Made by a program: the position numbers and the translations under genes. Shown in pieces: positions 9,465 through 40,619 of a DNA stretch of 64,000 nucleotides. This stretch comes from a virus (Duplodnaviria > Heunggongvirae > Uroviricota > Caudoviricetes > Straboviridae). The DNA lies in the IMG/VR virus record IMGVR_UViG_638277085_000001, positions 163,399 through 227,398 of that record. The stretch is one strand, 5' to 3'. Under the pieces are notes generated by a model. The model worked only from the letters and a program-made list of their open reading frames with translations. It searched no databases and was not told the DNA's origin. Positions within the stretch are counted from its first letter, which is position 1, and each line of letters opens with the position of its first letter.

Positions 9465-9738
9465 CTAATGTGCAATACACAGACATTCGAGAATTGTTTT
9501 ATCGTCTTTCCTTAAATCTCAATTGACTATCTCGATGTTTCTCATCAAGAGAATACCCATGATTCGGCATGAGACCTATTTCGTTTAACAGTACGAACAC
9601 CGTCTTAATGGTCATTTCCTACCACGAGAATGCGACAGGCTCACGTCATCACTGAGAAAGCAGCTAGTGCGCCTCATTACTATTAAAGTTTGCTTCTTTG
9701 ATTAGTAATAGTTGCTGTACAATGTCTTATTGCGAATT

Positions 9739-9827
9739 TGGCGGAGATACTGGGAATCGAACCCAGAGAACGCTATTAACGTCCGACACCTTAGCAGGGT
9801 GCTGTCATACCTTTAGACCATATCTCC
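9739..9827 (-). tRNA. tRNA-Ser(GCU), type II with a long variable arm; CCA encoded
   Basis: Hand fold: 7-bp acceptor GGAGATA/TATCTCC, T-arm CTGGG TTCGATT CCCAG, anticodon stem GCACC/GGTGT with loop CTGCTAA. Confidence 0.65.
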
Positions 9828-9833
9828 GTAGAT

Positions 9834-10012
9834 CATTTCTTACCACGCTCTGCTTTGCTAATCTCGACAGCAGCGATTTGCGCGTTGGCTTCTTTCTCAG
9901 TGTCATGAGTACCAAGTACTCGACCTTTAGATGAAAGAGCAACCCATTTGTCGCCACGCTTCTCGACTTTCTCAACAAGCTTGTGATATTCATCAAATGT
10001 TTTAAGTTTCAT
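9834..10012 (-). CDS. Small hypothetical protein (59 aa, MKLKTFDEYHKLVEKVEKRGDKWVALSSKGRVLGTHDTEKEANAQIAAVEISKAERGKK). It is absent from the ORF track because it is under 60 aa.
   Basis: ATG preceded by GAGGGA. A clean ORF lies between tRNA-Ser and the next intergenic region. Confidence 0.5.
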
Positions 10013-10267
10013 GTGTCATCCCTCAGTTAGTTTATTGTATTTATAACTGAACGACTTTTAAACAGTGGCATGCTGCTCCCATGCTCAGACACATATTTGC
10101 TCTTAATGCAGGCGTGTGCCACGCGCAGCGCAGATCCCATTCGATAATTTAATGACCAGCGGGACTCTTAGCAGGTCTACACATAGCCTTTCAGCTATAT
10201 CTTCTTTTAAGACCATAGTGTCGTACGGTCTAATCACTCTCTTTCGATTCGCGTTGCTAAGTGAATT

Positions 10268-10344
10268 TGGTGCCCAACCCGAGATTCGAACTCGGATCAT
10301 CTAGTGTTTGAAACTAGCGCCTCTGCCAATTGGACTAGTTGGGC
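10268..10344 (-). tRNA. tRNA with anticodon CAA (Leu-decoding) but a short 5-nt variable loop (type I); A73; CCA encoded
   Basis: Acceptor GCCCAAC/GTTGGGC is perfect. D-arm is GTCC-AATTGGCAG-AGGC. Anticodon stem CTAGT/ACTAG with loop TTCAAAC. T-arm CCGAG TTCGAAT CTCGG. Confidence 0.55.
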
Positions 10345-10460
10345 TTGAATAAGCTGCCGCAACTCTTTAATCCCTAACGCCTGTCAGCTTTCGCTCGGCT
10401 GAGACCGTTTTTCAACGGCGGTAGTCTAGCTTCGTGTAGAACGCGGCTTATGCTAGAGTT

Positions 10461-10537
10461 TGGTACGCACGGGCGGATTCGAACCGCCATCCCTGAGATT
10501 TTAAGCCTCATGCCTCTGCCAATTGGACCACGTGCGC
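10461..10537 (-). tRNA. tRNA with anticodon UAA (Leu-decoding), type I; A73; CCA encoded
   Basis: Acceptor GCGCACG/CGTGCGT (G1.U72). D-arm nearly identical to that of 10268..10344. Anticodon stem TGAGG/TCTCA, loop CTTAAAA. Confidence 0.55.
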
Positions 10538-10539
10538 AG

Positions 10540-10613
10540 TGGAGCCCGAACAGAGAATCGAACTCTGACCGCGGGATTTGCAATCCCTCATACTTCCATT
10601 ATACGATTCGGGC
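10540..10613 (-). tRNA. tRNA-Cys(GCA); CCA encoded
   Basis: Acceptor GCCCGAA/TTCGGGC. Anticodon loop TTGCAAA. T-arm CAGAG TTCGATT CTCTG. Confidence 0.65.
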
Positions 10614-10716
10614 AATTTGTTAGTGCATTGCATGGACTACTGGCGATCTTAATGGGTATCTCAAGCATTCAGAATTCCCATGCGCTACTACAATGCTTTT
10701 TTCGCTAAATGCACTT

Positions 10717-10793
10717 TGGGGTGACAGACGGGGATCGAACCCGCATCTTCCGGAATCACAACCCGGGGGTATTTCCACTTCACCCACTGCCAC
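10717..10793 (-). tRNA. tRNA-His(GUG); discriminator C73; CCA encoded
   Basis: Acceptor GTGGCAG/CTGTCAC. Anticodon stem CCGGG/TCCGG, loop TTGTGAT. Confidence 0.65.
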
Positions 10794-10847
10794 ACCAAAG
10801 TACACTTTGGGATGTTTACGACATCAAACGAATGCGCTCCCTGTGCA

Positions 10848-11087
10848 TTAATCAGTTTTCTTTAAGTAGATACTATCAGGCGATAGCTCTCTCGTAAACA
10901 TATTTTTGAAATAAATTTCGATGTCATCAGAAGTTGTTGAAGACTCAATTTCAAGAGCACGTTCTAAAATCTTACCGCGTTTATAACCAGCGCGCCAACA
11001 GTCAAACATAAGTCTGTCCATGCGTTTCAGTTTTTCAATTTGGTTTTGATTTACGTATTCGTGAGTTTCAAGTAATACAGGCGTCAT
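10848..11087 (-). CDS. Hypothetical protein
   Basis: 79-aa ORF located between tRNA genes. Confidence 0.4.
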   Translation of the reverse strand: MTPVLLETHEYVNQNQIEKLKRMDRLMFDCWRAGYKRGKILERALEIESSTTSDDIEIYFKNMFTRELSPDSIYLKKTD

Positions 11088-11100
11088 AATTTATTTCTCA

Positions 11101-11174
11101 TCATAAAGAATGGTAGTCCCTAGTGGAATCGAGCCACTTCTTTCTCTGTGTAAAAGAGACGTACTGCCATTATA
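11101..11174 (-). tRNA. tRNA-Val(UAC); CCA encoded
   Basis: Acceptor GGTCCCT/AGGGACT. Anticodon stem TCTCT/AGAGA, loop TTTACAC. The T-loop CTCGATT is slightly atypical. Confidence 0.6.
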
Positions 11175-11179
11175 CTAAG

Positions 11180-11253
11180 GGACCAAAATTGGAGCGGGTA
11201 CACGGACTCGAACCGAGACGAACGACTTGGAAGGACGTCATGCTACCATTACA
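11180..11253 (-). tRNA. tRNA-Gly(UCC); CCA encoded
   Basis: Acceptor GCGGGTA/TACCCGC is perfect. Anticodon loop CTTCCAA. Confidence 0.65.
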
Positions 11254-11267
11254 TCATACCCGCATTG

Positions 11268-11462
11268 TTAATCTGAAGCGTCGAACAAATCACGTATTGC
11301 ACGCAGATTCGTAAGCTCTACAGTAAGTGTTCTTATAAAGAACGGGTTGGTCTCTTTCGCGAGACGATTTTCAACACAGCGAATCTTATCGCGTATGTTG
11401 CCCTTGCTTAGTGTAAAGTAGTCATGCTTCTTATCCTCTTTGCTTGAATTTGGTGGAGACAC
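11268..11462 (-). CDS. Doubtful small ORF (no ATG; it would need a GTG start inside the 3' end of the adjacent tRNA)
   Basis: ORF-track ORF of 64 aa. Its 5' end overlaps tRNA 11451..11526. Confidence 0.2.
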   Translation of the reverse strand: MSPPNSSKEDKKHDYFTLSKGNIRDKIRCVENRLAKETNPFFIRTLTVELTNLRAIRDLFDASD

Positions 11463-11526
11463 CGATACTCGAAATCGGATCTAATGGCTTATGAGACCAT
11501 TGCTCTACCACTTGAGCTACATCTCC
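11451..11526 (-). tRNA. tRNA with anticodon CAU (elongator Met or lysidine-Ile2); CCA encoded
   Basis: Acceptor GGAGATG/TGTCTCC. D-arm GCTC-AAGTGGTA-GAGC. Anticodon stem ATGGT/GCCAT, loop CTCATAA. Confidence 0.6.
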
Positions 11527-12030
11527 AAAATCAGTAATTAACTCATTTAATCGCACACGGGCTGACACCATATATTCATGGTCTGAGCGAGGAACCACAT
11601 AGTGGGTACTATTACCTCATCTTAGTTTTGATTGTTTTACATGACGATAACTAGAAACGTTCATAATAATGCCACGCGATACTTCCTGTATCACGGCTAA
11701 CTGAGTTAGCATATCGTGCCTTGCGGCTGTAGTGTCGTTTCCGACGAATTAAGTACAGACAATACCGAAGTGTTTTTTCGTCTTTGACATGAATCGGAGT
11801 TGACTATCTTGTTATTCACAACAAGCAAATATCGTCTGTTTCAGCGACGCGCCTATCTGACTATTTCTAGACAGAGAGAATCTTTCCTTTCAAGCTGCAC
11901 CGAAGCACCGCCCAGGTTAAGATCATTACCATTTTAAGTAAGATTTTAATTTGTTGCTGTATATTGTCTCTCAAACCATGCTCGTGATATGCCGAAGCAA
12001 GTATCATTCGGCGCATGATAGAGCTTAATT

Positions 12031-12106
12031 TGGCATCCCCAGAGGGATTCGAACCCACAACCCACGACTTAGAAGGTCGTTGCTCTTCCAATTGAGCTAT
12101 GAGGAC
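12031..12106 (-). tRNA. tRNA-Arg(UCU); CCA encoded
   Basis: Anticodon stem ACGAC/GTCGT, loop CTTCTAA. T-arm GTGGG TTCGAAT CCCTC. Confidence 0.6.
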
Positions 12107-12182
12107 GTTGAAAGTATTCGATCCATGAGCTATTGCGCAGACGATGGTAGTAAAGAGACTCTGCACTCATGTGATCGAAATT

Positions 12183-12258
12183 TGGTGGACACGCAGGGAG
12201 TCGAACCCTATCTTCCTCATTGCAAGTGAGGCGCTTTCCCAATTAAGCTAACGGCCCA
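12183..12258 (-). tRNA. tRNA-Ala(UGC)-like with G3.U70 present but the lower three acceptor pairs mismatched (possible pseudo-tRNA)
   Basis: D-arm GCTT-AATTGGGA-AAGC. Anticodon stem CCTCA/TGAGG, loop CTTGCAA. T-arm TAGGG TTCGACT CCCTG. The 5' end GGGCCGT versus 3' end CGTGTCC pairs only at positions 1-4. Confidence 0.45.
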
Positions 12259-12268
12259 ATGTTCGTTT

Positions 12269-12480
12269 TTACAACTGTGTGATTGAGATATGATCCCAGC
12301 CGTATAAACCTTCAAGTTCTTCAATAGGCTCACAAACAATGTCAGAAATATATTCAGCAACTTTTGCTTCAATTTCTTCATCAGATAGCTTTTCATCAAT
12401 TGCAAAAGCATCTTCATTATTGTTGCCACCGAAATAGCCACCAATGTCATATTCACACCATACTGAAATATAGTTCATGT
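12269..12480 (-). CDS. Hypothetical acidic small protein (start placed at MNYISVW; the ORF track extends it into the tRNA)
   Basis: 70-aa ORF. The longer track version overlaps tRNA-Thr. Confidence 0.35.
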
Positions 12481-12502
12481 TATTCTCACAGTTGTTTGAA
12501 AA

Positions 12503-12578
12503 TGGTGCCCTGACACGGATTTGAACCGCGAACCTGCTCATTACAAGTGAGCTGCACTGCCAATTGTGCTATCAGGGC
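12503..12578 (-). tRNA. tRNA-Thr(UGU); CCA encoded
   Basis: Acceptor GCCCTGA/TCAGGGC is perfect. Anticodon stem GCTCA/TGAGC, loop CTTGTAA. Confidence 0.65.
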
Positions 12579-12706
12579 GTTACTGAGTGTTATTACTTGC
12601 GTCGTCCAGACCAGAGATACCAACTCTGAAAGGGAATCGAACCCCAAACATTTCTTTTCGTAAGAAGAATATTAGTAATTGTTTGCTGAAAACACTCTTC
12701 GGTATT

Positions 12707-12780
12707 TGGCAGGGGATAACGGATTCGAACCGGTACTGCGTGAGTCAAAGTCACGTATGCTGCCTTTACATCAATCCCCT
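12707..12780 (-). tRNA. tRNA-Gln(UUG); CCA encoded
   Basis: Acceptor AGGGGAT/ATCCCCT. Anticodon stem CGTGA/TCACG, loop CTTTGAC. Confidence 0.6.
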
Positions 12781-12799
12781 ATTATTCTTAAATTATCTT

Positions 12800-12875
12800 T
12801 GGCGGAACCGACGGGTTTCGAACCCGCTACCTTCTCCGTGACAGGGAGACATGCAACCACTTACACCTCGGCTCC
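12800..12875 (-). tRNA. tRNA-Asp(GUC); CCA encoded
   Basis: Acceptor GGAGCCG/CGGTTCC. Anticodon stem TCTCC/GGAGA, loop CTGTCAC. Confidence 0.6.
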
Positions 12876-13097
12876 CCAAAGACAACTTAACGTTGCTTTG
12901 TGCTCGTGCAAACCAAACACTAGCTGAACGACTTCTTGATTTCTTAGTTGTACTACACATTCCCTCGCTAAAGGGCGTCATCGTTCTTGTTTTTAACAAA
13001 TGCTATGAAAGTGAGATCTTGCTATGCAGGAGGTTTCAAATCTCTGCACACAAGCAGACATCGCAACCAACGCTCTCAAACATTGTCATGGTCAAAC

Positions 13098-13173
13098 TGG
13101 CGCCTTATGTTGGACTCGAACCAACGACTCTCTGGTTAACAGCCAGACACTCTACCGACTGAGTTAATAAGGC
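13098..13173 (-). tRNA. tRNA-Asn(GUU), copy 1; CCA encoded
   Basis: Acceptor GCCTTAT/ATAAGGC. Anticodon stem TCTGG/CCAGA, loop CTGTTAA. Confidence 0.6.
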
Positions 13174-13179
13174 AAAATA

Positions 13180-13254
13180 TGGCGGGCGTGGAGAATTTCG
13201 AAATCTCGACCTGACGGTTAACAGCCGTCTGCTCTGCCTCTGAGCTACACACCC
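13180..13254 (-). tRNA. tRNA-Asn(GUU), copy 2 (divergent sequence; atypical palindromic T-arm with a 53-61 mismatch); CCA encoded
   Basis: Acceptor GGGTGTG/CACGCCC. Anticodon stem GACGG/CCGTC, loop CTGTTAA. T-arm GAGAT TTCGAAA TTCTC. Confidence 0.5.
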
Positions 13255-13332
13255 TTTAAATTAAACAGCAATCCTTTTCTCTTTTTCCAAATAAAAGTTT
13301 TGTATTGTTTGCTGAAAGATTGCTTAATTCTG

Positions 13333-13527
13333 TTACGACGTAAACTGCTCGACTTTACAAGAGTCAACATCGTCAAACTTTTCGATTCGTTTAGCTAACA
13401 TTTTAGCCTTTCGCTCAATCGAGCGATCTTCGTAACCGAATTCAGATTTGTTATTGTCACAAGCTAATGCGCTCGACTTGACAACAGTCGAATCATTCAT
13501 TACCATCACTAGTCTGTACATAAACAC
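13333..13527 (-). CDS. Hypothetical protein
   Basis: 64-aa ORF between tRNA genes. Confidence 0.35.
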   Translation of the reverse strand: MFMYRLVMVMNDSTVVKSSALACDNNKSEFGYEDRSIERKAKMLAKRIEKFDDVDSCKVEQFTS

Positions 13528-13536
13528 CTCTGATAA

Positions 13537-13610
13537 TTGGCAGGGACATAGAGATTCGAACTCTAACGAACGGGTTTGGAATCCGTCATGCTGCCGTTAC
13601 ATCATGTCCC
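13537..13610 (-). tRNA. tRNA-Trp(CCA); CCA encoded
   Basis: Acceptor AGGGACA/TGTCCCT is perfect. Anticodon loop TTCCAAA. Confidence 0.6.
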
Positions 13611-13616
13611 TAAAAT

Positions 13617-13690
13617 TTGGTAGCCCCAGACAGACTCGAACTGTCAACGTGCGATTATCGGTCGCGTGTTTTACCGTTAAACTATGGAGC
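13617..13690 (-). tRNA. tRNA-Ile(GAU) (C at position 33 and a C.A at 27-43 in my fold); CCA encoded
   Basis: Acceptor AGCTCCA/TGGGGCT. Anticodon region CGCGA CCGATAA TCGCA. Confidence 0.5.
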
Positions 13691-13755
13691 TAAAGTGAGC
13701 ACATTTCAGTGCTCGTGTTAATCGGTTAAGTGACTAAACTTCCCGGTTAACTAAT

Positions 13756-13854
13756 TGGCGGAAGACTAGGGATTCGAACCCTAACATCACCTCCCGGTGA
13801 CCGACGGTTTTCAAGACCGTTGCCGCTACCCAGAATCTTTCGGCTAAGCCTTCC
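13756..13854 (-). tRNA. tRNA-Ser(UGA), type II, unusually long (96 nt + CCA) with an oversized D-loop
   Basis: Acceptor GGAAGGC/GTCTTCC. Anticodon stem ACGGT/ACCGT, loop CTTGAAA. Variable arm TCACC-GGGA-GGTGA. Confidence 0.5.
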
Positions 13855-13861
13855 ATTAATT

Positions 13862-13937
13862 TGGTAGCGAGTGCCAGAATCGAACTGACCTAAACTAGCT
13901 TATGAGACTAGTGAGTTCACCAGAACTCTAACTCGCA
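13862..13937 (-). tRNA. tRNA with anticodon CAU (Met/Ile2 candidate) and an unpaired 1-72 (U.U); CCA encoded
   Basis: D-arm GAGT-TCTGGTGA-ACTC. Anticodon stem CTAGT/GCTAG, loop CTCATAA. Confidence 0.55.
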
Positions 13938-14038
13938 ATTATTCAACAGCTTGCGTTCTTTGGTCTGTTTATCGCTGTCTGAACTGAGTTCGCCGAGCGA
14001 TCAATAGATTAAGTTGAATTGCAGTATGCAAGCTAAAT

Positions 14039-14124
14039 TTGGTGGAGCGTAGAGGAATCGAACCTCTCTTCCCATTACGGGACACGGATTTACAGTCCGC
14101 TGCCGCACCTTGCGGCTTACGCTC
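14039..14124 (-). tRNA. tRNA-Tyr(GUA), type II; CCA encoded
   Basis: Acceptor GGAGCGT/ACGCTCC is perfect. Anticodon loop CTGTAAA. Variable stem TCCC/GGGA. Confidence 0.65.
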
Positions 14125-14130
14125 CAGAAT

Positions 14131-14205
14131 TTGGTACTCGATACGGGAGTCGAACCCGTCCTACTTCCTTGAAAGGGAAGTGACCTACCGATAGTCGAAT
14201 CGAGC
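14131..14205 (-). tRNA. tRNA-Glu(UUC); CCA encoded
   Basis: Anticodon stem CTTCC/GGAAG, loop CTTTCAA. D-stem is 3 bp. Confidence 0.55.
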
Positions 14206-14269
14206 ATTAAATTGTATATTGATTTGCAAGCTAATCAACTCGCAAAGCGATACACAATGTATCTAATTT

Positions 14270-14346
14270 GGTACGCCGCCCTGGACTCGAACCAGACACC
14301 TGAGAGTTAAAAGCTCCCTGCTCTTCCATGATGAGCTACCGACGCA
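14270..14346 (-). tRNA. tRNA-Lys(UUU), copy 1; CCA encoded
   Basis: D-arm GCTC-ATCATGGAA-GAGC. Anticodon stem GGGAG/CTCTC, loop CTTTTAA. G.G at 7-66. Confidence 0.55.
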
Positions 14347-14354
14347 TTATAAAA

Positions 14355-14429
14355 TCTGGTGGGTCGCAAGAGATTCGAACTCTCACCGTTCTGGTTAAAA
14401 GCCAGATGTACTACCGTTATACGAACGAC
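14355..14429 (-). tRNA. tRNA-Lys(UUU), copy 2 (divergent); CCA encoded
   Basis: Acceptor GGGTCGT/GCGACCC. Anticodon stem TCTGG/CCAGA, loop CTTTTAA. Confidence 0.6.
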
Positions 14430-14435
14430 CCAGAA

Positions 14436-14510
14436 TGTGGTGCACCCCCTCGGAATCGAACCGAGCACTGCGGGACTTCAATCCGCCGCTTTTCCTGATA
14501 AGCTAAGGGT
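14436..14510 (-). tRNA. tRNA-Phe(GAA); CCA encoded
   Basis: Acceptor GCACCCT/GGGGTGC. Anticodon loop TTGAAGT. Confidence 0.6.
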
Positions 14511-14511
14511 G

Positions 14512-14589
14512 CATGGTACGCAAGAAGAGATTCGAACTCTTAACTTCTGGTTTCTAAGACCAGTGCCTCTGCCAGATTGGGCTACTTGC
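14512..14589 (-). tRNA. tRNA with anticodon UAG (Leu-decoding), type I with a short variable loop; A73; CCA encoded
   Basis: Acceptor GCGCAAG/CTTGCGT. D-arm GCCC-AATCTGGCAG-AGGC. Anticodon stem CTGGT/ACCAG, loop CTTAGAA. Confidence 0.55.
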
Positions 14590-14624
14590 GCATTGTTTGT
14601 TTTTGAACGTTACTTCGTTCTTCT

Positions 14625-14660
14625 TCATTGTACATGATGTTTATATCGTTGTAAACATCT
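14625..14660 (-). promoter_or_regulatory. T4-early-like sigma70 promoter (minus strand: A-rich UP, -35 GTTTAC, 18-nt spacer, -10 TACAAT), copy 1 of a tandem pair
   Basis: The reverse complement reads aaaaaagatGTTTACaacgatataaacatcatgTACAATgaag. It sits immediately upstream (minus orientation) of the tRNA block starting at 14589. Confidence 0.5.
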
Positions 14661-14709
14661 TTTTTGAAAAACTTTTCATTAACTTTTGAATGATATTTCG
14701 CTTTTCTCT

Positions 14710-14745
14710 ATTGTACATGATGTTTATATCGTTGTAAACATCTTT
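14710..14745 (-). promoter_or_regulatory. T4-early-like promoter, copy 2 (35/36 identical to copy 1)
   Basis: Same GTTTAC-N18-TACAAT arrangement. The two copies form a direct repeat 80 bp apart. Confidence 0.5.
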
Positions 14746-14903
14746 TTAAATTTATTTTGAAGAACTTAACGTTTTCATTTTTCTATGTGTTAATCTTAAC
14801 ACTCGCTCAAGACATCTTAAACACTAATTTGTGAAAAAGTTCGTTAAATTCTATCATCACGACAGTACTTAACGAGATACGGTCCTAAGCGTATCAAATT
14901 AAT

Positions 14904-15028
14904 TCAGAATGGTGAGACTTGAACTCACTTCGAGTAATAGCGTAAACTAACAGTTGTTGCCAGAGGCTATCAATTATTCTCTACCGAGTATGTTGCAACT
15001 CTGCATTTCCCCATTTCTAGGCATTCTG
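14904..15028 (-). ncRNA. 125-nt tRNA-like element. The termini form a perfect 7-bp acceptor-like helix (CAGAATG/CATTCTG) stacked on a T-arm (GTGAG TTCAAGT CTCAC), with a roughly 90-nt non-cloverleaf body.
   Basis: Acceptor and T-arm complementarity seen directly. There is no D or anticodon arm and no encoded CCA. Confidence 0.35.
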
Positions 15029-15033
15029 AAATA

Positions 15034-15109
15034 TGGCACCCCACAGAAGATTCGAACTTCTAACCTGCGCCTTCGTAGGACGCTGCTCTTCCAATTGAGC
15101 TAGTAGGGC
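15034..15109 (-). tRNA. tRNA-Arg(ACG); CCA encoded
   Basis: D-arm GCTC-AATTGGAA-GAGC. Anticodon stem GCGTC/GGCGC, loop CTACGAA. Confidence 0.6.
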
Positions 15110-15116
15110 ATTAAAC

Positions 15117-15193
15117 TGGTCCGTGACAAGCGATTCGAACGCTTAACTTCTCCGCCCCAAACGGAGTACTCTACCAGATTGAGCTAGTCACGG
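15117..15193 (-). tRNA. tRNA-Pro(UGG), copy 1 (C1-G72); CCA encoded
   Basis: Acceptor CCGTGAC/GTCACGG is perfect. Anticodon stem CTCCG/CGGAG, loop TTTGGGG. Confidence 0.65.
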
Positions 15194-15202
15194 ATTTTAA
15201 AT

Positions 15203-25587: not shown

Positions 25588-26042
25588 TACACTCTCAGTC
25601 CTATTAGTTTACGAAGTCCGACTTCAGTCAAGACTTTGAATTGCCATCCCTTCTGCTTTGCGAATTTAATCGCAGCAGCCCACTTATCTTGGTTTACTTG
25701 ATACGTATATATCTCTTTCAGTAAACGCTTCTTAGCTTTTTCAGTAAGTCTCTGTGGTTTCTCGGGTGGCAACGTTTCTTTGTTGGGTTTGATCTCGAAT
25801 ATGAATTCTCGACCGTCACTGAACTTCACGTAAAAGTCCATGAAATATCTACGTTTTTTCCCACCGTCAGCAGAACTAACATAAGGGATAACGATTTCTT
25901 CAGAGTTCCAGCGAACTACATGCGGGTTGTTGTCACACCAGCGCATGAAAGACAATTCCCATGAGCTTCTGTACTCAATTTTCTGATAGTTGCCTTTGTA
26001 TTTCGATTTGTTTGTTGGAACGTATTTGCCAGAATATGCCAT
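25587..26042 (-). CDS. Putative head completion protein (gp4-like; 151 aa versus T4 gp4 at 150 aa)
   Basis: Size and position divergent from the gp53 operon. Confidence 0.3.
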   Translation of the reverse strand: MAYSGKYVPTNKSKYKGNYQKIEYRSSWELSFMRWCDNNPHVVRWNSEEIVIPYVSSADGGKKRRYFMDFYVKFSDGREFIFEIKPNKETLPPEKPQRLTEKAKKRLLKEIYTYQVNQDKWAAAIKFAKQKGWQFKVLTEVGLRKLIGLRV

Positions 26043-26108
26043 AAAACGCCTCCTTTCATTTATTTAGTATCGAGTCTAAATACAGATATATTTTAAAGGA
26101 GATCTAAC

Positions 26109-27248
26109 ATGGGATTTTTAAGTTACGTCGGTCTTAACGGAAAACAAAGTGATACTCTTGATCGTGTACTGTCTTTTGATGGGGGCGTTGAAAGTAGCAC
26201 AACTGAGATTACCCAAGACACAGATCAGGGCAGAGTTAGCACGTCTAATATAGTTGCACTGACATATCCGCCCAATCTTGGCGCGAGATCTGGACACTCG
26301 AACTTTTTTATTTTTCGAGCGTATGACTTGGCTAGCACAACAAAGCAACATTACACTGACATGCGGCAGTCATTCACAGCATCATCGAAAGAATCTAAGC
26401 AGGCGTCTGAAATTCCTAGTGAGTTGATGGCAACTATGGCTCTTTACGCGCCAAACTTAGTTGAAGAAGTTTCGCATGAATATGACAAAACACCGACTTC
26501 AGTTTTAAATGACTTCTTAGCCGCAGCCGCTACAGCAGCCGGTGCAGATACTGTTTCTCAGGGTGTAGAAGCGGGTAAGAAAGCCGTAGCAACCGCAGCC
26601 GGTGCTACGTTAGCACAGATCAAGCGTTCATTCATTCAATCAAATGCTGCCGGTCAGCTTGAGAAGAACAGCAGCGTAGTTACGGATAACGTTACTGTAA
26701 CTGCATACAAAGGGACCGCTCAACGTCAGCAAACATTGATGTATCAATTTCACCCGAAATCACTAGATGAACTGAAGATCGTCGGTGAGGTCATTAAAAC
26801 ATTCTATCGACTTTCTCTACCAGTGAAAGGTCAGATTAGTTCTGATTTGCTAGATACTGGTAATGCTGCATTAGGTTCAGGGTTTTCAAATGGCTTTGCG
26901 AAGTATGCAACGCTATTGAAAACGCCGCCAGTGTGGATGATTGAAGAAGTTTCAGATGTTGACGCGACACGATACACCCCGCGATTCGTTTTCGGACCTG
27001 CGGGTATCACGTCAGTGAAATTAAACAGAACACCAGATCAGTATTGGCGCACATTTCGCGGTACAGCAGGCGACCCAGCAGGTATTGAACTTGAAGTAAC
27101 GTTCACTGAGCTTATCCCTATGGATCGTGCAATGTACGAGCGAGATCAAGCAAGTAGCATTCGTGGTTACGACAATGGTACCACTACTGCAAGTGGTAAC
27201 CGTAATGATTCTGGTTCATTCTTTGGTGATATTGGGAGTTTATTCTAA
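26109..27248 (+). CDS. Putative baseplate structural protein
   Basis: 379 aa. First gene of the plus-strand baseplate operon, immediately upstream of the gp53 homologue. Confidence 0.3.
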   Translation: MGFLSYVGLNGKQSDTLDRVLSFDGGVESSTTEITQDTDQGRVSTSNIVALTYPPNLGARSGHSNFFIFRAYDLASTTKQHYTDMRQSFTASSKESKQASEIPSELMATMALYAPNLVEEVSHEYDKTPTSVLNDFLAAAATAAGADTVSQGVEAGKKAVATAAGATLAQIKRSFIQSNAAGQLEKNSSVVTDNVTVTAYKGTAQRQQTLMYQFHPKSLDELKIVGEVIKTFYRLSLPVKGQISSDLLDTGNAALGSGFSNGFAKYATLLKTPPVWMIEEVSDVDATRYTPRFVFGPAGITSVKLNRTPDQYWRTFRGTAGDPAGIELEVTFTELIPMDRAMYERDQASSIRGYDNGTTTASGNRNDSGSFFGDIGSLF

Positions 27249-27826
27249 TGATTTTCGCGATATTTGACAAGACTGAATATCTTGGTGTTGAAACTGCGAA
27301 TATTTTCAAGAATTTGAATTATTATCATAAGCAGATCATCCCATCATTCACGACTATTCAGTACAAAATCAGGGGCGACTATCGCCCTGAACAGATTGCA
27401 TATGAACTGTATGGCGATACGTCGTTATACTGGTTGATTATGCTTCTAAACGAACGAGTTGACCCTTTTTATGATTGGGTTCAGCCCAACGAATCGGTTT
27501 CTGAGAACGCTATTTATCGTTATCAGTTTATTGGCGGCAACGAGCAAGTTCATCATCACGTAGATGAGCAAGGTCGATGGTGGTATGACGTGGTCGAAGA
27601 CCCAGAAAATCCTCGAAATTGGTACAATAAATTCGATTGGGAAAACAACGCGCCTGAAGAAGGGCAGGAAGATTATCGTGAGCTTCTATATCACGGCGTG
27701 ATGATCCCTGTTTCCGTTGACGAATATGAATTCAACCGAAACGAAGAAAATCGCGTAATCAATGTACTATCGAGGGATGATGTTAGTACTTACATTAGCA
27801 CATTCATGAAATTAGCAGGGGTATAA
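27248..27826 (+). CDS. 53: Baseplate wedge protein gp53
   Basis: 192 aa (T4 is 196 aa). The segments AIFDKTEY, YKIRGDYRPEQIAYELYGDTSLYWLIMLLNERVDPFYDW and VHHHVDEQGRWWYDV align with the T4 gp53 motifs TFFDPIEY, YYIKGSPRPEELANAIYGNPQLYWVLLMCNDNYDPYYGW and VYHVNENGEKFYNL. Confidence 0.8.
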   Translation: MIFAIFDKTEYLGVETANIFKNLNYYHKQIIPSFTTIQYKIRGDYRPEQIAYELYGDTSLYWLIMLLNERVDPFYDWVQPNESVSENAIYRYQFIGGNEQVHHHVDEQGRWWYDVVEDPENPRNWYNKFDWENNAPEEGQEDYRELLYHGVMIPVSVDEYEFNRNEENRVINVLSRDDVSTYISTFMKLAGV

Positions 27827-27827
27827 C

Positions 27828-29099
27828 ATGTTTGAAATGCGCTCCGCTAACCCAATTGAGAACTTTGTGGTTAGCAAGATTCACATACGCGGTCTTGATT
27901 TTGCAGCGTCGGTGGAGAATGAAATCACACACATGGAAATTTATGAATCGCTTAACGGGTTGGTTTCTGGCATGTTCATGTTCAAGGATTCGATTGGCGT
28001 CGTTGACACAATTCGAATGACTGGGTTTGAAGCAATTGACGTTGAATTTGCGTCGTATGTCGGGGAGCAAGCAAACCGAGTCTATCAAAAATCATTTCGT
28101 GCAACGGGTATTTCTAGAATGCCCGCACGTACTGGTGGGTTTGAGACTGTATTGGTGCGTTTCACAAATAACTTACTGACTCTTAACGATTACGTTAAAC
28201 GACCTTATGTATTCAAGAAGACTAGTATTTCGAATATCATAAAAGCGATTTTGGATAATCTGGGCGATGAGAAGCCAGAATATGAAATTGAAACGTCTTT
28301 ATATCAACGTGATTTTGTGACGAAGATTGGTAAACCGTACGACATTATTAAAAGTATCGTCGATCATGCTAGTACAGACGTGAATAACAGTTGTAAATTC
28401 ATGTTCTATGAAGACCGCGACTCAGTTAAATTCGCATCACTTGGGTCAATTCGTGACAAAGAATATGAATACATCATCCGTAAGGGTGCTGATACGGGCG
28501 ATGGTAAATGGACTTCTGGCAACACGAATACAATTACAGCATTGCGGGTTGTGGTGAAGGAACAATCTAATATGCACGAGATTTCTAGTGGTTTATTCGG
28601 ATCTAGAACATATTCGCATAGTTTAATTCGGAAGAAATTGACTACAAAAGATGTTCGTAGAAATGATTATATTGCTCAAGTTGGAATTTTGAATGACCGC
28701 GCTCATATGTACACTAATGAACTTGAGTTTGCAAGCGAAGTTCCTGAAACTGAGCAGCCATTAAACAGCATTCAGCTACTCCCGAACGATGGTTTTTACG
28801 AACATGACAACAAACACCCACTGGGGTCTATTCACGGCGTATCTCTTATGGAGGAGACGTATTTGAAAGCTAAACAGATCATCGTTGAAATACCCGGGAA
28901 CACTAACATCACGGTTGGTGACGTTGTATTTCTTGATTATCACGCGGTGACTGGTGAGAATCATTCTAGTTTAGACGCATCGGGTCGTTGGATTGTTCAT
29001 GAGTTGAAGCACCGTGTTGAACCCAACTCATTTATAACTACTCTTGAATTGTCTAGTGATTCATCGGTTAATATCGCAATTGCGGGGAGCAAGAAATAA
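27828..29099 (+). CDS. Baseplate protein (possibly hub subunit gp27-like; assigned by position next to gp5)
   Basis: 423 aa between gp53 and gp5. Confidence 0.3.
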   Translation: MFEMRSANPIENFVVSKIHIRGLDFAASVENEITHMEIYESLNGLVSGMFMFKDSIGVVDTIRMTGFEAIDVEFASYVGEQANRVYQKSFRATGISRMPARTGGFETVLVRFTNNLLTLNDYVKRPYVFKKTSISNIIKAILDNLGDEKPEYEIETSLYQRDFVTKIGKPYDIIKSIVDHASTDVNNSCKFMFYEDRDSVKFASLGSIRDKEYEYIIRKGADTGDGKWTSGNTNTITALRVVVKEQSNMHEISSGLFGSRTYSHSLIRKKLTTKDVRRNDYIAQVGILNDRAHMYTNELEFASEVPETEQPLNSIQLLPNDGFYEHDNKHPLGSIHGVSLMEETYLKAKQIIVEIPGNTNITVGDVVFLDYHAVTGENHSSLDASGRWIVHELKHRVEPNSFITTLELSSDSSVNIAIAGSKK

Positions 29100-30364
29100 T
29101 GTTTATGGGATTAGATGGGTTTGAGTGGTGGACTGGCGTTGTCGAAGATCGAACAACCGACCCACTCAAACTTGGTAGAATTAAAGTTCGAATGATTGGT
29201 CTGCACCCAGATAAGAAAAGTTCAGAACAAGGTATTCGAACTGAAGAACTGCTTTGGGTTCATCCCATGCAGTCTCTTGATAATGCAGCAATGAACGGAA
29301 TCGGGAATGCTCCTATAGGCGTCGTTGAGGGAACGTGGGTTTTTGGTTTCTTCAGAGACAAGTTGCGTCAAGATGCAGTCGCCATGGGTGTATTGCCCGG
29401 GATTCCCGAAGATTTGCCGAACGGTAGCGTTGGGTTTAATGACCCGAATGAGAAATATCCGTTAGCAGATAAGCTTAATGAGCCAGATACAAACCGTCTA
29501 GCTCGTAATGACGTTGATCCTGACGTATATGACGAAAGTCAATCTCAGACTGCGTTTGATAACGGTGAAGCGCCTTATGTATATCGACCGCACCCGATCA
29601 TTGCAAGTAAAAGAGCGGCTGAAGAGAAAGAAATCCCACTTGCTGGTTACAATGCAGAGGGTCCGAAGTACGATGAGAAAGGCACGCCGTATGCAGCACA
29701 GTATCCGTACAATCATGTTCGTGAATCAGAATCAGGACACATTCATGAGATTGATGACACAGAGGGAGCAGAGCGTCTTCATACGTATCACAGAACTGGA
29801 ACGTTTGAAGAAATTCACCCAGATGGTAGTCGAGTGACAAAGATTATAGGCGATGATTTTGAGATTGTACATAAGAATCAAAATGTGTACATCAAAGGCA
29901 ACTTGAATATCACCGTTGTTGGCGACGCGACTTTTTACTGTCAGCAAAACGTTACTCAACAGATTGACGGGGACTTGAAACAGCACGTCAAGGGTAATGT
30001 TGATCAGCACGTCGAAATGAACGTGACTCAAACAGTTGACAAAGACGTTACGCAAGTCGTTCATCAGAACGTTACACAAACCGTCGATATGAATGTCACT
30101 CAGACAGTGCATCAGAACGTTACACAGACGGTTGACGGGGATGTTAATCAAACTGTGGGCGGTAACGTTCAAAGTAACGTCACGGGCGATTACACGCAGA
30201 ATATCAGCGGTAATTACACAATCACAGTGGGCGGTTCTATGTCTGAAAGTGTTAGTTCATCGTATACTCGTTCAGCAGCATCAATAAGTGATGATGGTGG
30301 TGGCGCAACTTTGAATTTAGCAGGTTCAGCAGCATTGGACGGCACAACAGTAAGTCTAGGTTAA
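29099..30364 (+). CDS. 5: Baseplate hub/spike protein gp5 (N-terminal OB-fold domain + C-terminal triple beta-helix repeats; no lysozyme domain)
   Basis: 421 aa. N-terminus MFMGLDGFEWWTGVVEDRTTDPLKLGRIKVR. C-terminal octad-like repeats (NVTQTVD / HQNVTQTV repeated more than 8 times). Confidence 0.7.
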   Translation: MFMGLDGFEWWTGVVEDRTTDPLKLGRIKVRMIGLHPDKKSSEQGIRTEELLWVHPMQSLDNAAMNGIGNAPIGVVEGTWVFGFFRDKLRQDAVAMGVLPGIPEDLPNGSVGFNDPNEKYPLADKLNEPDTNRLARNDVDPDVYDESQSQTAFDNGEAPYVYRPHPIIASKRAAEEKEIPLAGYNAEGPKYDEKGTPYAAQYPYNHVRESESGHIHEIDDTEGAERLHTYHRTGTFEEIHPDGSRVTKIIGDDFEIVHKNQNVYIKGNLNITVVGDATFYCQQNVTQQIDGDLKQHVKGNVDQHVEMNVTQTVDKDVTQVVHQNVTQTVDMNVTQTVHQNVTQTVDGDVNQTVGGNVQSNVTGDYTQNISGNYTITVGGSMSESVSSSYTRSAASISDDGGGATLNLAGSAALDGTTVSLG

Positions 30365-30368
30365 TTGA

Positions 30369-30854
30369 ATGGCTAGTATTACACCAACAACATTGCCAAT
30401 CATTGCAGAGGGTGAGAACGTCGATGTGACGTTCTTCGCTGTTATGGATGAAGGCGAAACATTGGTTGACATAAACATCACGAATTTTATACCAAATACG
30501 GGCATCACGATTGAGGGTGCTCGTTATTACGGTCAGTATCAGGATTCGTTTGATTTGGGACCAAGTGGCTTGAAGTATCGCGACACGCGAGACAATAGCT
30601 ATCATGAAGTGAGTAAATTCAGTGATTTGCCAGCGAATCCGGCTCATGGTCACGTGTATCGCTTCGAAGCGCCTAGTCCGCTGTCAACTGATTACACATA
30701 CGAAGTCACAGTCAATTACGAGTATGAAGATCCACTTGTGCCTGGTGTTATCGAAGAGCGTCAGCTAATCGAAACGTTCAGTCAGACCGTAAAGGGTAAA
30801 TGGGATAATTGGGCACAGCAACTTAGAGATTATATAGCAGCGGGAGGTAATTAA
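30369..30854 (+). CDS. Hypothetical protein (gp5.1-like by position and size)
   Basis: 161 aa between gp5 and the PAAR gene. Confidence 0.3.
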   Translation: MASITPTTLPIIAEGENVDVTFFAVMDEGETLVDINITNFIPNTGITIEGARYYGQYQDSFDLGPSGLKYRDTRDNSYHEVSKFSDLPANPAHGHVYRFEAPSPLSTDYTYEVTVNYEYEDPLVPGVIEERQLIETFSQTVKGKWDNWAQQLRDYIAAGGN

Positions 30855-31150
30855 TGCCAGCTTTAGCAGGGGCAGACGAACCGACTACTGGTCACGGAAC
30901 ATATCCACCGACAGTAGTAACAGGGGGTAGCGGGAGAGTTACAGTACAAGGCAAACCTGCGTTATCAAAAGATAACATGGTTCATGTTACGCATTGTAAC
31001 ACAGTTCCGAATCATGATTGTCACGCCGGTAGTGCAGCAACGTTTAGTCCGAAAGTGTTTATTGAGGGGAGTAATGCAATCCGTATCGGCGACACATTGA
31101 CGTGCGGCGATACGGTAGCAGGTGGTGCGGGGAAGGTTACTAGTTCGTAG
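30854..31150 (+). CDS. 5.4: PAAR-repeat spike-tip protein (gp5.4-like)
   Basis: 98 aa, Gly/His/Cys-rich with PAAR-like repeats (HCNTVPNHDCHAGS). Immediately downstream of gp5. Confidence 0.7.
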   Translation: MPALAGADEPTTGHGTYPPTVVTGGSGRVTVQGKPALSKDNMVHVTHCNTVPNHDCHAGSAATFSPKVFIEGSNAIRIGDTLTCGDTVAGGAGKVTSS

Positions 31151-31499
31151 CGTTGTGCGATTTGATTCGCTCTTCACTATTCAGAGTCGTAACGTCAACT
31201 TCTTCAGCTTTGAATGAATTATCGACCATTTTTGGTGCTTCGACAGTCGTCATTGGATCGACTTTGTATTTTGCAGTGTCGTTTACGACTTCGGTCGCTG
31301 TAGGGCGTGTGATTGGTGATGTGAACACTTTAAACGCACCAGCAGCAAGTGTCAGAACTAGAGCTACTGCAATGATTTTGCCGTAAGGTAGTTTCAAATC
31401 AAACTTGAAGATCTTTGACAAGATGAACGCAACAAGCAAGATTAGCAGTAATGAAACGAATACGCCAACGACTGGTGCGAGAACTAATAAAAATTCCAT
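31140..31499 (-). CDS. Membrane protein (two predicted TM helices)
   Basis: 119 aa with LLVLAPVVGVFVSLLLILLVAFIL and IIAVALVLTLAAGAF. Confidence 0.4.
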   Translation of the reverse strand: MEFLLVLAPVVGVFVSLLLILLVAFILSKIFKFDLKLPYGKIIAVALVLTLAAGAFKVFTSPITRPTATEVVNDTAKYKVDPMTTVEAPKMVDNSFKAEEVDVTTLNSEERIKSHNATN

Positions 31500-31523
31500 T
31501 GTATTTTCCTATTTCGTGTGAAA

Positions 31524-31551
31524 CAAAGGGGCGACATAGCCGCCCCGTTTT
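31524..31551. terminator. Hairpin terminator (ggggcgacatagccgcccc + T-run), likely bidirectional between convergent genes
   Basis: 8-bp GC stem flanked by A- and T-runs. Confidence 0.55.
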
Positions 31552-31553
31552 GA

Positions 31554-32429
31554 TTATTTAATCGGAGTTTGCACTGCGATTTTGTCAAGCATTTCGGTAG
31601 GTACGAATACCTTGTTGTTTGATTTCGCAAGCTCACGTAGAGTTTTTTGCTCTTCTAGGAAGCGTACGTTGTTGTTCATCAGCTTGTCAGCAACCAGTTT
31701 CTTGGTTTCTGCTTCGTACAGTTCGATTTCGCGTTGACGTTTTGAAACTTCTTCACGAGTCGCAATCTGTAGCAGGTCAAGTTTACGTTGTGCTTTTACA
31801 GTATCTTCTTGCTGACGACGTTCAGCCGATGCTTCTTGCGCAGCAGTAATCGTTTTAGGGTAAACTACGTCAGTAACACCCACGACTTTAAGAACGAATG
31901 GCGTATCTTTCAGTTCTTGATTAAGACGCTGTTTCACGAACTGGTTAAGCTTTTCACGGTTAGATGCGACTTCCGAAATGCTGTATTCAGCAATGATTGA
32001 CGGAATAATCGTGTTCAGTTTAGCTCGTGCATAACGAACGAACACATCTTGCTGTGAAATCACACCTAATTGATCAGTCTGCGATTTGAACGGCACCTTC
32101 GCAAAAACGAAGTTGTATTTCGCAGGATCGACCGCCATGGTCATTTCAACGTCGTACTTCAGCATTAGTTCGTCTTTCGGCATGAAAGTGTCAAACTTCA
32201 TTTCGTAGAAGCTGTCAGATACATCAAGCAGTACTAGACGATCTGGGTAGCGCCATGCCCAATCAAGACGGAACTTAGATGGTTGACGTGGCTCTTGAGT
32301 CAAATCGAAGCCGTCTTTAGTCTGAATCTTACCAACGAAGCCGGTTGGGATTTCAGCAGGAGTACCACAGCCAGTTAGTGCGAAGCCCAGTGCTGCTACT
32401 GAAAGAAGTTTAGCGATATTTTTAAACAT
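31554..32429 (-). CDS. Putative lipoprotein (signal peptide + lipobox LTGC) with a coiled-coil C-terminal region, possibly SPFH/band-7-like
   Basis: 291 aa. N-terminus MFKNIAKLLSVAALGFALTGC. Confidence 0.4.
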   Translation of the reverse strand: MFKNIAKLLSVAALGFALTGCGTPAEIPTGFVGKIQTKDGFDLTQEPRQPSKFRLDWAWRYPDRLVLLDVSDSFYEMKFDTFMPKDELMLKYDVEMTMAVDPAKYNFVFAKVPFKSQTDQLGVISQQDVFVRYARAKLNTIIPSIIAEYSISEVASNREKLNQFVKQRLNQELKDTPFVLKVVGVTDVVYPKTITAAQEASAERRQQEDTVKAQRKLDLLQIATREEVSKRQREIELYEAETKKLVADKLMNNNVRFLEEQKTLRELAKSNNKVFVPTEMLDKIAVQTPIK

Positions 32430-32583
32430 GTTTTGCTCTCTTAGTTAAGTTGACGATGTGAATGATACGTTGTGTAGTTCAGCATGTCAAGTTGTTTTTC
32501 ACAAATTTCTCATTTTGTTTGTGCGCTTCGTTGCGCTGAGGAGTACATAGTAGGCAAAACAAATACCCCTGTCAACACTTTTC

Positions 32584-32591
32584 TATAAATA
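32584..32591 (+). promoter_or_regulatory. T4 late promoter box TATAAATA upstream of gp25
   Basis: Exact TATAAATA 24 nt before the start codon at 32615. Confidence 0.6.
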
Positions 32592-32614
32592 AATTTAAAA
32601 TTCGGAGAAAATCT

Positions 32615-33034
32615 ATGGCAATTGCAGAGTTGAACACTCTAAAGCCAGGGAGTTACTACTTCAGTGACATCCCAGCAAATTTCGGCAAGAGTGTTGTAAA
32701 CAATGACTTGAGCGCATCATATGACTTGAAAGCAATACAAGAATCAATCATCGGAATCGTGAGTACAAAGAAAGGCGAGCGACCTTTCAATCCCGAATTC
32801 GGATGTGACATCAGCAATCAGCTATTTGAAAATATTTCGCCTGCAAGTGCGTTTGCAATCAAATACAGTATTGAGAACGCGATTTCTAAATGGGAACCGC
32901 GTGTGGTGATTCAAAAGATTGAAGTTCTACCGCTTTATGACAAGAACACATACGAAATTGTGGTTCAGTATCATCTACGCACCAACTTTGATCGACTGTT
33001 TGCGCTTAAAACAAGACTTGTGAATCGTCTTTAA
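32615..33034 (+). CDS. 25: Baseplate wedge protein gp25 (GPW/gp25 family)
   Basis: 139 aa (T4 is 132 aa). Directly upstream of the gp6-gp12 block. A late promoter precedes it. Confidence 0.55.
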   Translation: MAIAELNTLKPGSYYFSDIPANFGKSVVNNDLSASYDLKAIQESIIGIVSTKKGERPFNPEFGCDISNQLFENISPASAFAIKYSIENAISKWEPRVVIQKIEVLPLYDKNTYEIVVQYHLRTNFDRLFALKTRLVNRL

Positions 33035-33037
33035 TGA

Positions 33038-33066
33038 ACAGCCCGCCATTGTGCGGGCTTTTTTGT
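33038..33066 (+). terminator. Rho-independent terminator (cagcccgccattgtgcgggc + T6)
   Basis: Hairpin plus T-run after gp25. Confidence 0.6.
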
Positions 33067-33118
33067 GCATTAAATATAAGAAACGAAATTTACATAATTT
33101 TACCAACAGGGGAATAAC

Positions 33119-39598: not shown

Positions 39599-39620
39599 TA
39601 AATAAAGTAAACAACTCATT

Positions 39621-39643
39621 AGGCGCGTGTTCGCGCCTTTCTT
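39621..39643 (+). terminator. Hairpin/terminator between gp8 and gp9 (aggcgcgtgttcgcgcct + ttctt)
   Basis: 7-bp GC stem followed by a U-rich tract. Confidence 0.4.
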
Positions 39644-39653
39644 GGAGATTAAG

Positions 39654-40610: not shown

Positions 40611-40619
40611 GGGACAATA

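Follow-up and report, generated by a model that had tools for sequence, protein, structure and literature searches.

Vibrio phage KVP40 carries three leucine tRNA genes that lack the long variable arm of a type II tRNA-Leu, and, judging from their sequences and from those of their relatives, they are probably functional type I leucine tRNAs that would be charged by the host's own leucyl-tRNA synthetase (LeuRS) and would sustain phage translation. The genes lie in a 64 000-nt stretch of viral DNA (the window), whose position 1 corresponds to position 163399 of the KVP40 record (AY283928.2) and whose positions 9700-17900 matched that genome with 100% identity by megablast. ARAGORN found 28 tRNAs in the window, every one on the minus strand, spanning 9739-17187. 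Among them, tRNA-Leu(CAA) occupies 10268..10344 and tRNA-Leu(UAA) 10461..10537, each of 77 nt, and tRNA-Leu(UAG) occupies 14514..14591, of 78 nt, all three lengths including an encoded CCA. The GenBank record already names them tRNA-Leu-1 (UUG), tRNA-Leu-2 (UUA) and tRNA-Leu-3 (CUA). A preliminary description of the window, made from the sequence alone, had placed the first two exactly and the third 2 nt away, at 14512-14589.

The tRNAs were called with ARAGORN and with Infernal and the Rfam model RF00005, together with direct segment parsing and minimum free energy (MFE) folding. With a gathering score of 29, the Rfam scores were 53.3 bits for Leu-CAA, 53.5 bits for Leu-UAA and 62.3 bits for Leu-UAG, with E-values of 1e-9 to 1e-14. 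ARAGORN, the segment parse and the presence of orthologues supported all three genes, and MFE alone gave a type I cloverleaf for Leu-UAG. The covariance-model alignments assigned each a variable region of 5 nt, and the sole non-standard pair in each was 13:22 (C.A) in the D stem. Thus the claim of the preliminary description that the tRNAs with anticodons CAA, UAA and UAG have 5-nt variable loops was borne out by ARAGORN, Rfam and the direct parse alike. The segments of Leu-CAA are GCCCAAC UA GUCC AAUUGGCAG AGGC G CUAGU UUCAAAC ACUAG AUGAU CCGAG UUCGAAU CUCGG GUUGGGC A CCA, those of Leu-UAA are GCGCACG UG GUCC AAUUGGCAG AGGC A UGAGG CUUAAAA UCUCA GGGAU GGCGG UUCGAAU CCGCC CGUGCGU A CCA, and those of Leu-UAG are GCGCAAG UA GCCC AAUCUGGCAG AGGC A CUGGU CUUAGAA ACCAG AAGUU AAGAG UUCGAAU CUCUU CUUGCGU A CCA, the variable loops being AUGAU, GGGAU and AAGUU, respectively.

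The remainder of each molecule is that of a bacterial leucine tRNA. The D arm, G(U/C)CC-AAU(C)UGGCAG-AGGC, with its 3-bp stem, C13.A22 and loop AAUUGGCAG, is the bacterial tRNA-Leu D arm (the D loop of Leu-UAG has 10 nt), and the segment parse confirmed that this arm and A73 are common to all three, as first described. U8, A14, A15, G18G19, A20a, U48 and A73 are present throughout, so that the identity set of E. coli LeuRS (A73, A14, the A15-U48 Levitt pair, G18G19 and A20a; PMC9976931, also PMC6614811) is complete in each tRNA. The anticodons stand in 7-nt loops with U33 and A37, as befits leucine decoding, and the parse revealed no G3:U70 or other strong foreign identity element. None of the three has a variable arm of more than 10 nt forming a stem-loop, which would mark type II; instead, the 5-nt loop and the D-arm signature NCCC-AAYYGGCAG-AGGN with C13.A22 are those of the Streptomyces type I tRNA-Leu. 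A GC content of 48-58%, G18G19 and a canonical TTCGAAT T loop set them apart from the animal mitochondrial type. The acceptor stems had been described as perfect in all three; this holds for Leu-CAA (G1-C72), but Leu-UAA and Leu-UAG open with a G1.U72 wobble and are not fully Watson-Crick.

Besides these three, ARAGORN, Rfam and the GenBank annotation show no tRNA-Leu in the 244.8-kb KVP40 genome, hence none of type II, the window being covered in full together with the 181 kb outside it; in those 181 kb, the same three sources gave no tRNA of any kind. The absence of a long-arm tRNA-Leu, asserted earlier for the stretch, therefore extends to the entire genome. The long arms of the other type II classes are retained, also as asserted, and these genes serve as internal comparators: tRNA-Ser(GCU) at 9739..9827 (minus strand; ARAGORN) and tRNA-Ser(UGA) at 13756..13841 (minus strand; ARAGORN) have variable arms of 19-20 nt, and tRNA-Tyr(GUA) at 14040..14125 (minus strand; ARAGORN, tRNA-Pseudo-2 in GenBank) has one of 16 nt. 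MFE folds of tRNA-Ser(GCU) and tRNA-Tyr(GUA) contain the arm hairpin. This contrast of long Ser and Tyr with short Leu was present in every genome examined.

The same three Leu isoacceptors, each with a 5-nt loop, are retained in the distant Schizotequatroviruses 1.081.O, D482 and F86, which have 78-86% identity to KVP40 in Leu-UAG. Multiple compensatory changes separate KVP40 from these relatives, in the stems of the acceptor, anticodon and T arms. For instance, where the acceptor stem of Leu-CAA reads GCCCAAC/GUUGGGC in KVP40, that of 1.081.O reads GCGUGUA/UACACGC, and the T stem of Leu-UAG shows AAGAG/CUCUU as against GAGAG/CUCUC. The KVP40 genes are therefore old genes under structural selection. 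Across 117 unique ungapped viral type I tRNA-Leu sequences, from the survey set out below, 97.7% of the pairs were standard, compared with 34-46% in slid controls, and there were 771 compensatory cells, compared with 149-196. U8, A14, A15, G18, G19, A20a, A22, U48 and A73 were nearly invariant in this alignment, and C13 was present in 108/117.

Three other accounts of the genes were discarded. They are not pseudogenes, as every stem is preserved by compensatory changes over the four Schizotequatroviruses and the 117 family members. Mis-assignment of the anticodon or frame is ruled out by the concordance of ARAGORN, the Rfam alignment, GenBank and the hand parse, the automated folds returning the anticodons first proposed. 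Suppressor or recoding tRNAs are likewise ruled out, since the codons read (UUG, UUA and CUA) are all sense codons and Leu identity elements are present in the body.

The design is found far beyond KVP40 and its relatives. When the KVP40 Leu tRNAs, and those of relatives, served as queries in a sensitive blastn search of 50 697 phage genomes, many phage groups yielded matches that were full-length, ungapped and annotated as tRNA-Leu. These included Vequintavirinae (Cronobacter CR3, CR8 and CR9; Enterobacter vB_ExiM), FelixO1-like Ounavirinae (41 Escherichia, 27 Salmonella and 12 Shigella records), several T5-like Demerecviridae (Serratia Slocum and Kamaji, Pectobacterium My1, Klebsiella Shiner), 105 mycobacteriophages of the Bxz1-like and Faith1-like groups, and Gordonia and Streptomyces phages. 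A restriction to KVP40 or to Vibrio phages is thereby ruled out. The FelixO1-like coliphages, the Vequintavirinae, some T5-like phages, the Bxz1-like mycobacteriophages and the actinophages share one body plan with KVP40, namely a 5-nt variable loop, A73, A14, A15:U48, G18G19, A20a and the C13.A22 D arm. Structural parsing of single genomes gave three Leu with loops of 5, 6 and 7 nt in E. coli phage wV8, together with Ser arms of 20 and 21 nt, a Tyr arm of 15 nt and no type II Leu in the region parsed; three Leu with 5-nt loops in mycobacteriophage LRRHood; two Leu, with loops of 5 and 6 nt, in CR9; and two with 5-nt loops in Slocum. Gordonia phage Phendrix has two type I Leu and one type II (13 nt). 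T5 has a type II tRNA-Leu(UAG) of 85 nt, and the tRNA-Leu of T4 is type II as well, which is probably why the short form was not flagged in classical phage work.

To these were added two samples of viral loci. The first was drawn from IMG/VR with a pattern that combined a Leu anticodon loop and a T loop with the D arm CCAA..GGYAGAGGC, at either type I or type II spacing, and gave at least 120 contigs with type I spacing and 2 with type II spacing. ARAGORN called 197 Leu at the matched loci, of which 174 (166 unique sequences) had a variable loop of 4-7 nt, as measured by a parser that takes the first TTCNA after the anticodon and is cross-checked solely against total tRNA length. All six Leu anticodons occur among the 174 (UAG 58, UAA 54, CAA 45, CAG 9, GAG 7, AAG 1), in canonical anticodon stem-loops with U33 and purine 37. 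A73 was found in 173/174 and A15:U48 in 169/174, A73 and position 48 being left free by the search pattern. The D-arm signature NCCC-AAYYGGCAG-AGGN / C13.A22 was present in 111+22 of the 174, as it is in the majority of the actinobacterial genes described below, and the Ser and Tyr tRNAs at these loci were long-armed.

As the first sample was selected on Leu itself, a second was assembled without bias as to Leu type, from 118 loci anchored on tRNA-Met(CAU). In this small sample, which may contain host fragments and in which the variable loop could be measured for 51 Leu genes, 13/51 Leu were type I (25%), and short loops were seen in 0/31 Ser and 1/20 Tyr; types I and II stood together in 7/25 Leu-bearing loci. 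With about 25% of the Leu genes, type I is over-represented among viral tRNA clusters, and hundreds of virulent phages carry it.

The G1.U72 wobble of Leu-UAA and Leu-UAG is itself unusually frequent in viral type I Leu, with 59/174 (34%) having it, and lone actinobacterial chromosomal genes have mostly G1-C72. It may be relevant to recognition, as the CP1 domain of E. coli LeuRS contacts A73 and the 1-72 region.

Cellular genomes also hold the design. A scan of the GTDB species collection with the type I Leu pattern, leaving the D stem unconstrained, matched at least 120 genomes. Among the 120 matches listed, the anticodons were CAA (51), UAA (40), CAG (16), UAG (12) and GAG (1), A73 was present in 120/120 and A15:U48 in 118/120, and 86 genes were the sole tRNA in their 8-kb locus. 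The matches listed came mostly from Actinomycetota, including Mycobacterium, Nocardia, Pseudonocardia, Streptomyces, Bifidobacterium and Corynebacterium, and in most of the lone genes the variable loop is a conserved NCAGU and the acceptor stem starts with G1-C72. Thus, with type I Leu in unrelated phage families and on actinobacterial chromosomes, it is no peculiarity of KVP40. Other matches stood in dense arrays of 9-25 tRNAs per 8 kb, in genomes or metagenome-assembled genomes of Acidobacteriota, Lachnospiraceae, Polyangiaceae, Microcoleus and Asanoa; these resemble phage or mobile 'tRNA array' units. One match was a metagenome-assembled genome of a Nitrososphaerales archaeon. A query made from enterobacterial-phage type I Leu matched 0/5,426 complete E. 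coli genomes.

The preliminary description had regarded type I tRNA-Leu as all but confined to animal mitochondria. This is contradicted by the above surveys and also by a type I tRNA-Leu(CAA) that is native to Streptomyces coelicolor (Fan, Huang, Ji & Wang, NAR 2019; PMC6614811). There, a single LeuRS (ScoLeuRS) charges type I and type II Leu, the type I about half as fast; the 5-nt loop length is important and the LSD domain of the enzyme confers type I charging. The Streptomyces case was presented as rare, and, among the literature searched, that paper is the only one to use the term 'type I tRNALeu'. Our literature searches returned no account of type I Leu in phages, although the first description of the KVP40 genome may have remarked on the short arms. 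Type I tRNA-Leu is thus already known as a class, of which the phage contingent is large and apparently undescribed.

How the KVP40 trio would work may be envisaged as follows. An arm-less bacterial tRNA-Leu core would be transcribed from the KVP40 tRNA cluster with its CCA already encoded, would most likely receive leucine from the host LeuRS by way of A73 and the tertiary core (U8-A14, the A15:U48 Levitt pair, G18G19 and A20a), and would then read UUG, UUA(/UUG) and CUA(/CUG), so sustaining phage translation. In KVP40, UUG makes up 22.9%, UUA 13.5%, CUA 20.1% and CUG 13.5% of Leu codons, together about 70%. The long variable arm is used by seryl-tRNA synthetase (SerRS) and by bacterial tyrosyl-tRNA synthetase (TyrRS), and not by LeuRS. 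Loss of the arm would accordingly be tolerated for Leu only, bacterial LeuRS identity lying outside it, and the long-armed Ser and Tyr tRNAs in the same genomes are explained by the use that their own synthetases make of the arm. In E. coli, leucylation was uncorrelated with the sequence or fold of the long arm, and arm-less tRNA-Leu variants were still active (PMC9976931). Furthermore, in the virulent E. coli phage wV8 the Leu tRNAs of the region parsed number three and are all type I, which implies selection for function in a gammaproteobacterial host.

Set against this, however, E. coli LeuRS (EcLeuRS) 'could not leucylate' the S. coelicolor tRNA-Leu(CAA) and 'only charges type II'; the LSD domain was needed, and chimeric EcLeuRS constructs gave no rescue (PMC6614811). 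The Streptomyces tRNA shares the set A14, A15:U48, G18G19, A20a and A73 with KVP40, and those nucleotides alone are therefore no guarantee of charging in Vibrio or E. coli. The literature is thus in conflict, with arm-less E. coli tRNA-Leu active according to a review (PMC9976931) and EcLeuRS failing on a Streptomyces type I tRNA in the Streptomyces study (PMC6614811). The implications for LeuRS recognition that the preliminary description had drawn are in this way retained in a sharper form, as EcLeuRS reportedly rejects a type I tRNA-Leu while phages of gammaproteobacteria, KVP40 and wV8 among them, carry type I Leu only.

A different view of the missing arm needs no benefit at all. An old, viable alternative tRNA-Leu lineage may be shared by phages and Actinobacteria, KVP40 having simply inherited it, or the arm may have been lost by neutral streamlining; we regard this as possible, though clearly less probable than the reading of functional leucine tRNAs charged by the host is on its own terms. 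It would account for the derived signature (C12-G23, C13.A22, NCCC-AAYYGGCAG-AGGN) common to phage and actinobacterial type I genes, where type II D stems are GCGG/ACGC and GUGG/ACAC, and for the near-exclusive company that this D arm keeps with type I spacing in viral contigs (at least 120, versus 2). The coexistence of types I and II in Phendrix and in the 7/25 Leu-bearing loci sits well with it, as does the halved charging rate of the type I tRNA by ScoLeuRS (PMC6614811), which is a cost and not a gain. What it fails to explain is the occurrence of whole type I Leu sets in the unrelated virulent phages KVP40, wV8 and LRRHood, and their retention where the host Leu tRNAs are believed to be all type II and a host-type LeuRS reportedly disfavours type I.

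It could also be envisaged that the arm-less body was selected as a counter-defence, since host effectors that bind or cleave long arms would not affect it, while charging by LeuRS was kept. This proposal, which is compatible with functional type I tRNAs charged by the host, we consider rather unlikely. The MenT3 toxin of M. tuberculosis prefers tRNA-Ser and one tRNA-Leu, which are long-armed (PMC7450476). PtuAB cleaves tRNA-Tyr in its variable loop, and AbiEii prefers long-armed tRNAs. The distribution of type I Leu, at about a quarter of viral Leu genes and in hundreds of virulent phages, with no match to the phage query in the complete E. coli genomes, would also be in keeping with such a role. 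However, the documented arm-directed cases concern Tyr and Ser, whose phage copies retain their arms, and we know of no nuclease or toxin that hits the tRNA-Leu arm in Vibrio or E. coli. T5 and T4 get by with type II Leu. In Actinobacteria, moreover, type I Leu is an ordinary chromosomal gene, and the design therefore needs no defence rationale. Less likely still is the same proposal in its broad form, as a widespread phage strategy in which complete type I Leu sets keep leucine decoding going when PtuAB-like nucleases or MenT/AbiEii-like nucleotidyltransferases attack long arms. Gammaproteobacterial LeuRS must then accept these tRNAs, despite the reported rejection of the Streptomyces type I tRNA by EcLeuRS, and, if the broad form were true, extra compensating determinants in the phage tRNAs would be implied, for which G1.U72 is one candidate.

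That the trio are not leucine adaptors at all is very improbable. On this view, the host LeuRS would leave them uncharged and they would serve as decoys, as regulators or as substrates for some other enzyme, or else they would carry a different amino acid. The failure of EcLeuRS and of its chimeric constructs on the Streptomyces tRNA-Leu(CAA) speaks for it. Against it stand the near-invariance of A73 and of the complete LeuRS tertiary identity set over 117-174 viral sequences, the canonical anticodon stem-loops, in which all six Leu anticodons are represented, the fit of the KVP40 set to phage codon usage, the absence of G3:U70 or any other strong foreign identity element, and the activity of a minimal arm-less E. 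coli tRNA-Leu (PMC9976931).

Functional type I leucine tRNAs in KVP40 would have several consequences. Whole Leu sets are arm-less in known phage groups, the KVP40-like, FelixO1-like and Bxz1-like phages, and the textbook rule of a long-armed tRNA-Leu is thus contradicted at scale. They present a testable conflict over LeuRS, in that EcLeuRS is reportedly type II-only, yet E. coli phages such as wV8 carry type I only, and they offer a simple hypothesis for tRNA-directed phage defence. For annotators and tRNA-seq pipelines, the message is that short tRNA-Leu genes are not to be treated as errors.

The tRNA cluster of KVP40 contains further genes that depart from the 2003 GenBank annotation. ARAGORN called a second tRNA-Asn (13180-13254), tRNA-Ser(UGA) (13756-13841), tRNA-Met(CAU) (13862-13937) and tRNA-Tyr(GUA) (14040-14125), all on the minus strand, which are missing from that annotation or called pseudogenes there. 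The tRNA-Tyr also matches the Rfam tRNA-Sec model at 49.2 bits, with a gathering score of 47, presumably via its long arm. Beyond the default ARAGORN calls, Rfam gave 4 additional tRNA matches in the window, and ARAGORN with intron detection gave 2 more tRNA-like genes. None of these is a disguised long-arm Leu, as all have 5-nt variable loops and D arms unlike tRNA-Leu, and the inserts that five of them carry lie in the anticodon arm. A tRNA-Ala(UGC)-like gene at 12183-12257 (minus strand; tRNA-Pseudo-1 in GenBank), scored at 44.9 bits by Rfam and missed by ARAGORN, has G3:U70 and a weak acceptor stem with 3 mismatches at its base.

Five tRNA-like genes of 114-124 nt, all on the minus strand (15903-16018, 17569-17692, 17702-17815, 17933-18056 and 18321-18443), have intact acceptor, D and T arms and a 5-nt variable loop, with some 45-56 nt replacing the anticodon loop. 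These inserts are shorter than group I introns allow, and the ARAGORN intron and anticodon calls for the five genes are mutually inconsistent. In the genes at 15903-16018, 17569-17692 and 17702-17815, which are tRNA-Pseudo-3/4/5 of GenBank, the insert contains a hairpin whose stem covaries and whose loop is conserved (GAUAC-UGACAA-GUAUC, GAAUAC-UGACAA-GCAUUC and GAAGUC-UGAUAA-GAUUUC). Orthologues of 115-124 nt occur in 1.081.O, D482 and F86, and the insert-bearing genes are therefore conserved and not decaying pseudogenes. KVP40 encodes RnlA, Rnl2 and PseT, which invites the hypothesis that these genes are processed by cutting and ligation. The T5 record, in the stretch 26000-46000, annotates several 'tRNA-like stable RNAs with unknown functions' (rna1, rna2, rna3, RNAI, RNAIII and RNAIV) among its tRNAs, and these may be analogous to the insert-bearing genes of KVP40.

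Among known systems, the T5 tRNA-Tyr that resists retron-Eco7/PtuAB resembles the KVP40 Leu tRNAs as a phage tRNA of a type II class whose variable region is unlike that of the host. However, its arm is altered rather than removed, and its resistance is experimental and concerns Tyr. Animal mitochondrial tRNA-Leu, such as human mt-tRNA-Leu(UUR), also combines a short variable loop with the A73 and A14 identity elements; in contrast to the canonical GC-rich cloverleaf of KVP40, with its G18G19 and TTCGAAT T loop, it is reduced and floppy and is served by a dedicated LeuRS. Human mt-tRNA-Leu was not charged by ScoLeuRS (PMC6614811), and the bacterial type I and mitochondrial classes are therefore functionally distinct. 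The type II tRNA-Leu of E. coli and T5 shares with KVP40 A73, A14, A15:U48, the G18G19 register, the AAYUGGYAGA D loop, the 3-bp D stem with 13:22 unpaired and the Leu anticodons. It differs in its variable-arm hairpin, the 5 nt of KVP40 comparing with 13 nt in T5 and with 12-20 nt among type II Leu of viruses, and in its D stem, which has G12-C23 with G13 or A13 where KVP40 has C12-G23 with C13.

The Streptomyces tRNA differs in its setting: it is one chromosomal type I isoacceptor beside four type II Leu, with a LeuRS shown to accept it, whereas KVP40 has three type I and no type II, and its host is gammaproteobacterial, with the E. coli-like type of LeuRS reported not to charge the Streptomyces tRNA. 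In addition, Leu-UAA and Leu-UAG of KVP40 have G1.U72, whereas the actinobacterial genes have mostly G1-C72. In body plan, the two agree: both are cytoplasmic bacterial-type tRNAs in which the D and T loops are canonical and the variable loop has 5 nt, both carry a Leu anticodon and A73, U8-A14, A15:U48, G18G19 and A20a, and they share the D arm GCCC-AAYYGGCAG-AGGC with C13.A22, which is also that of the Mycobacterium and Bifidobacterium sequences compared.

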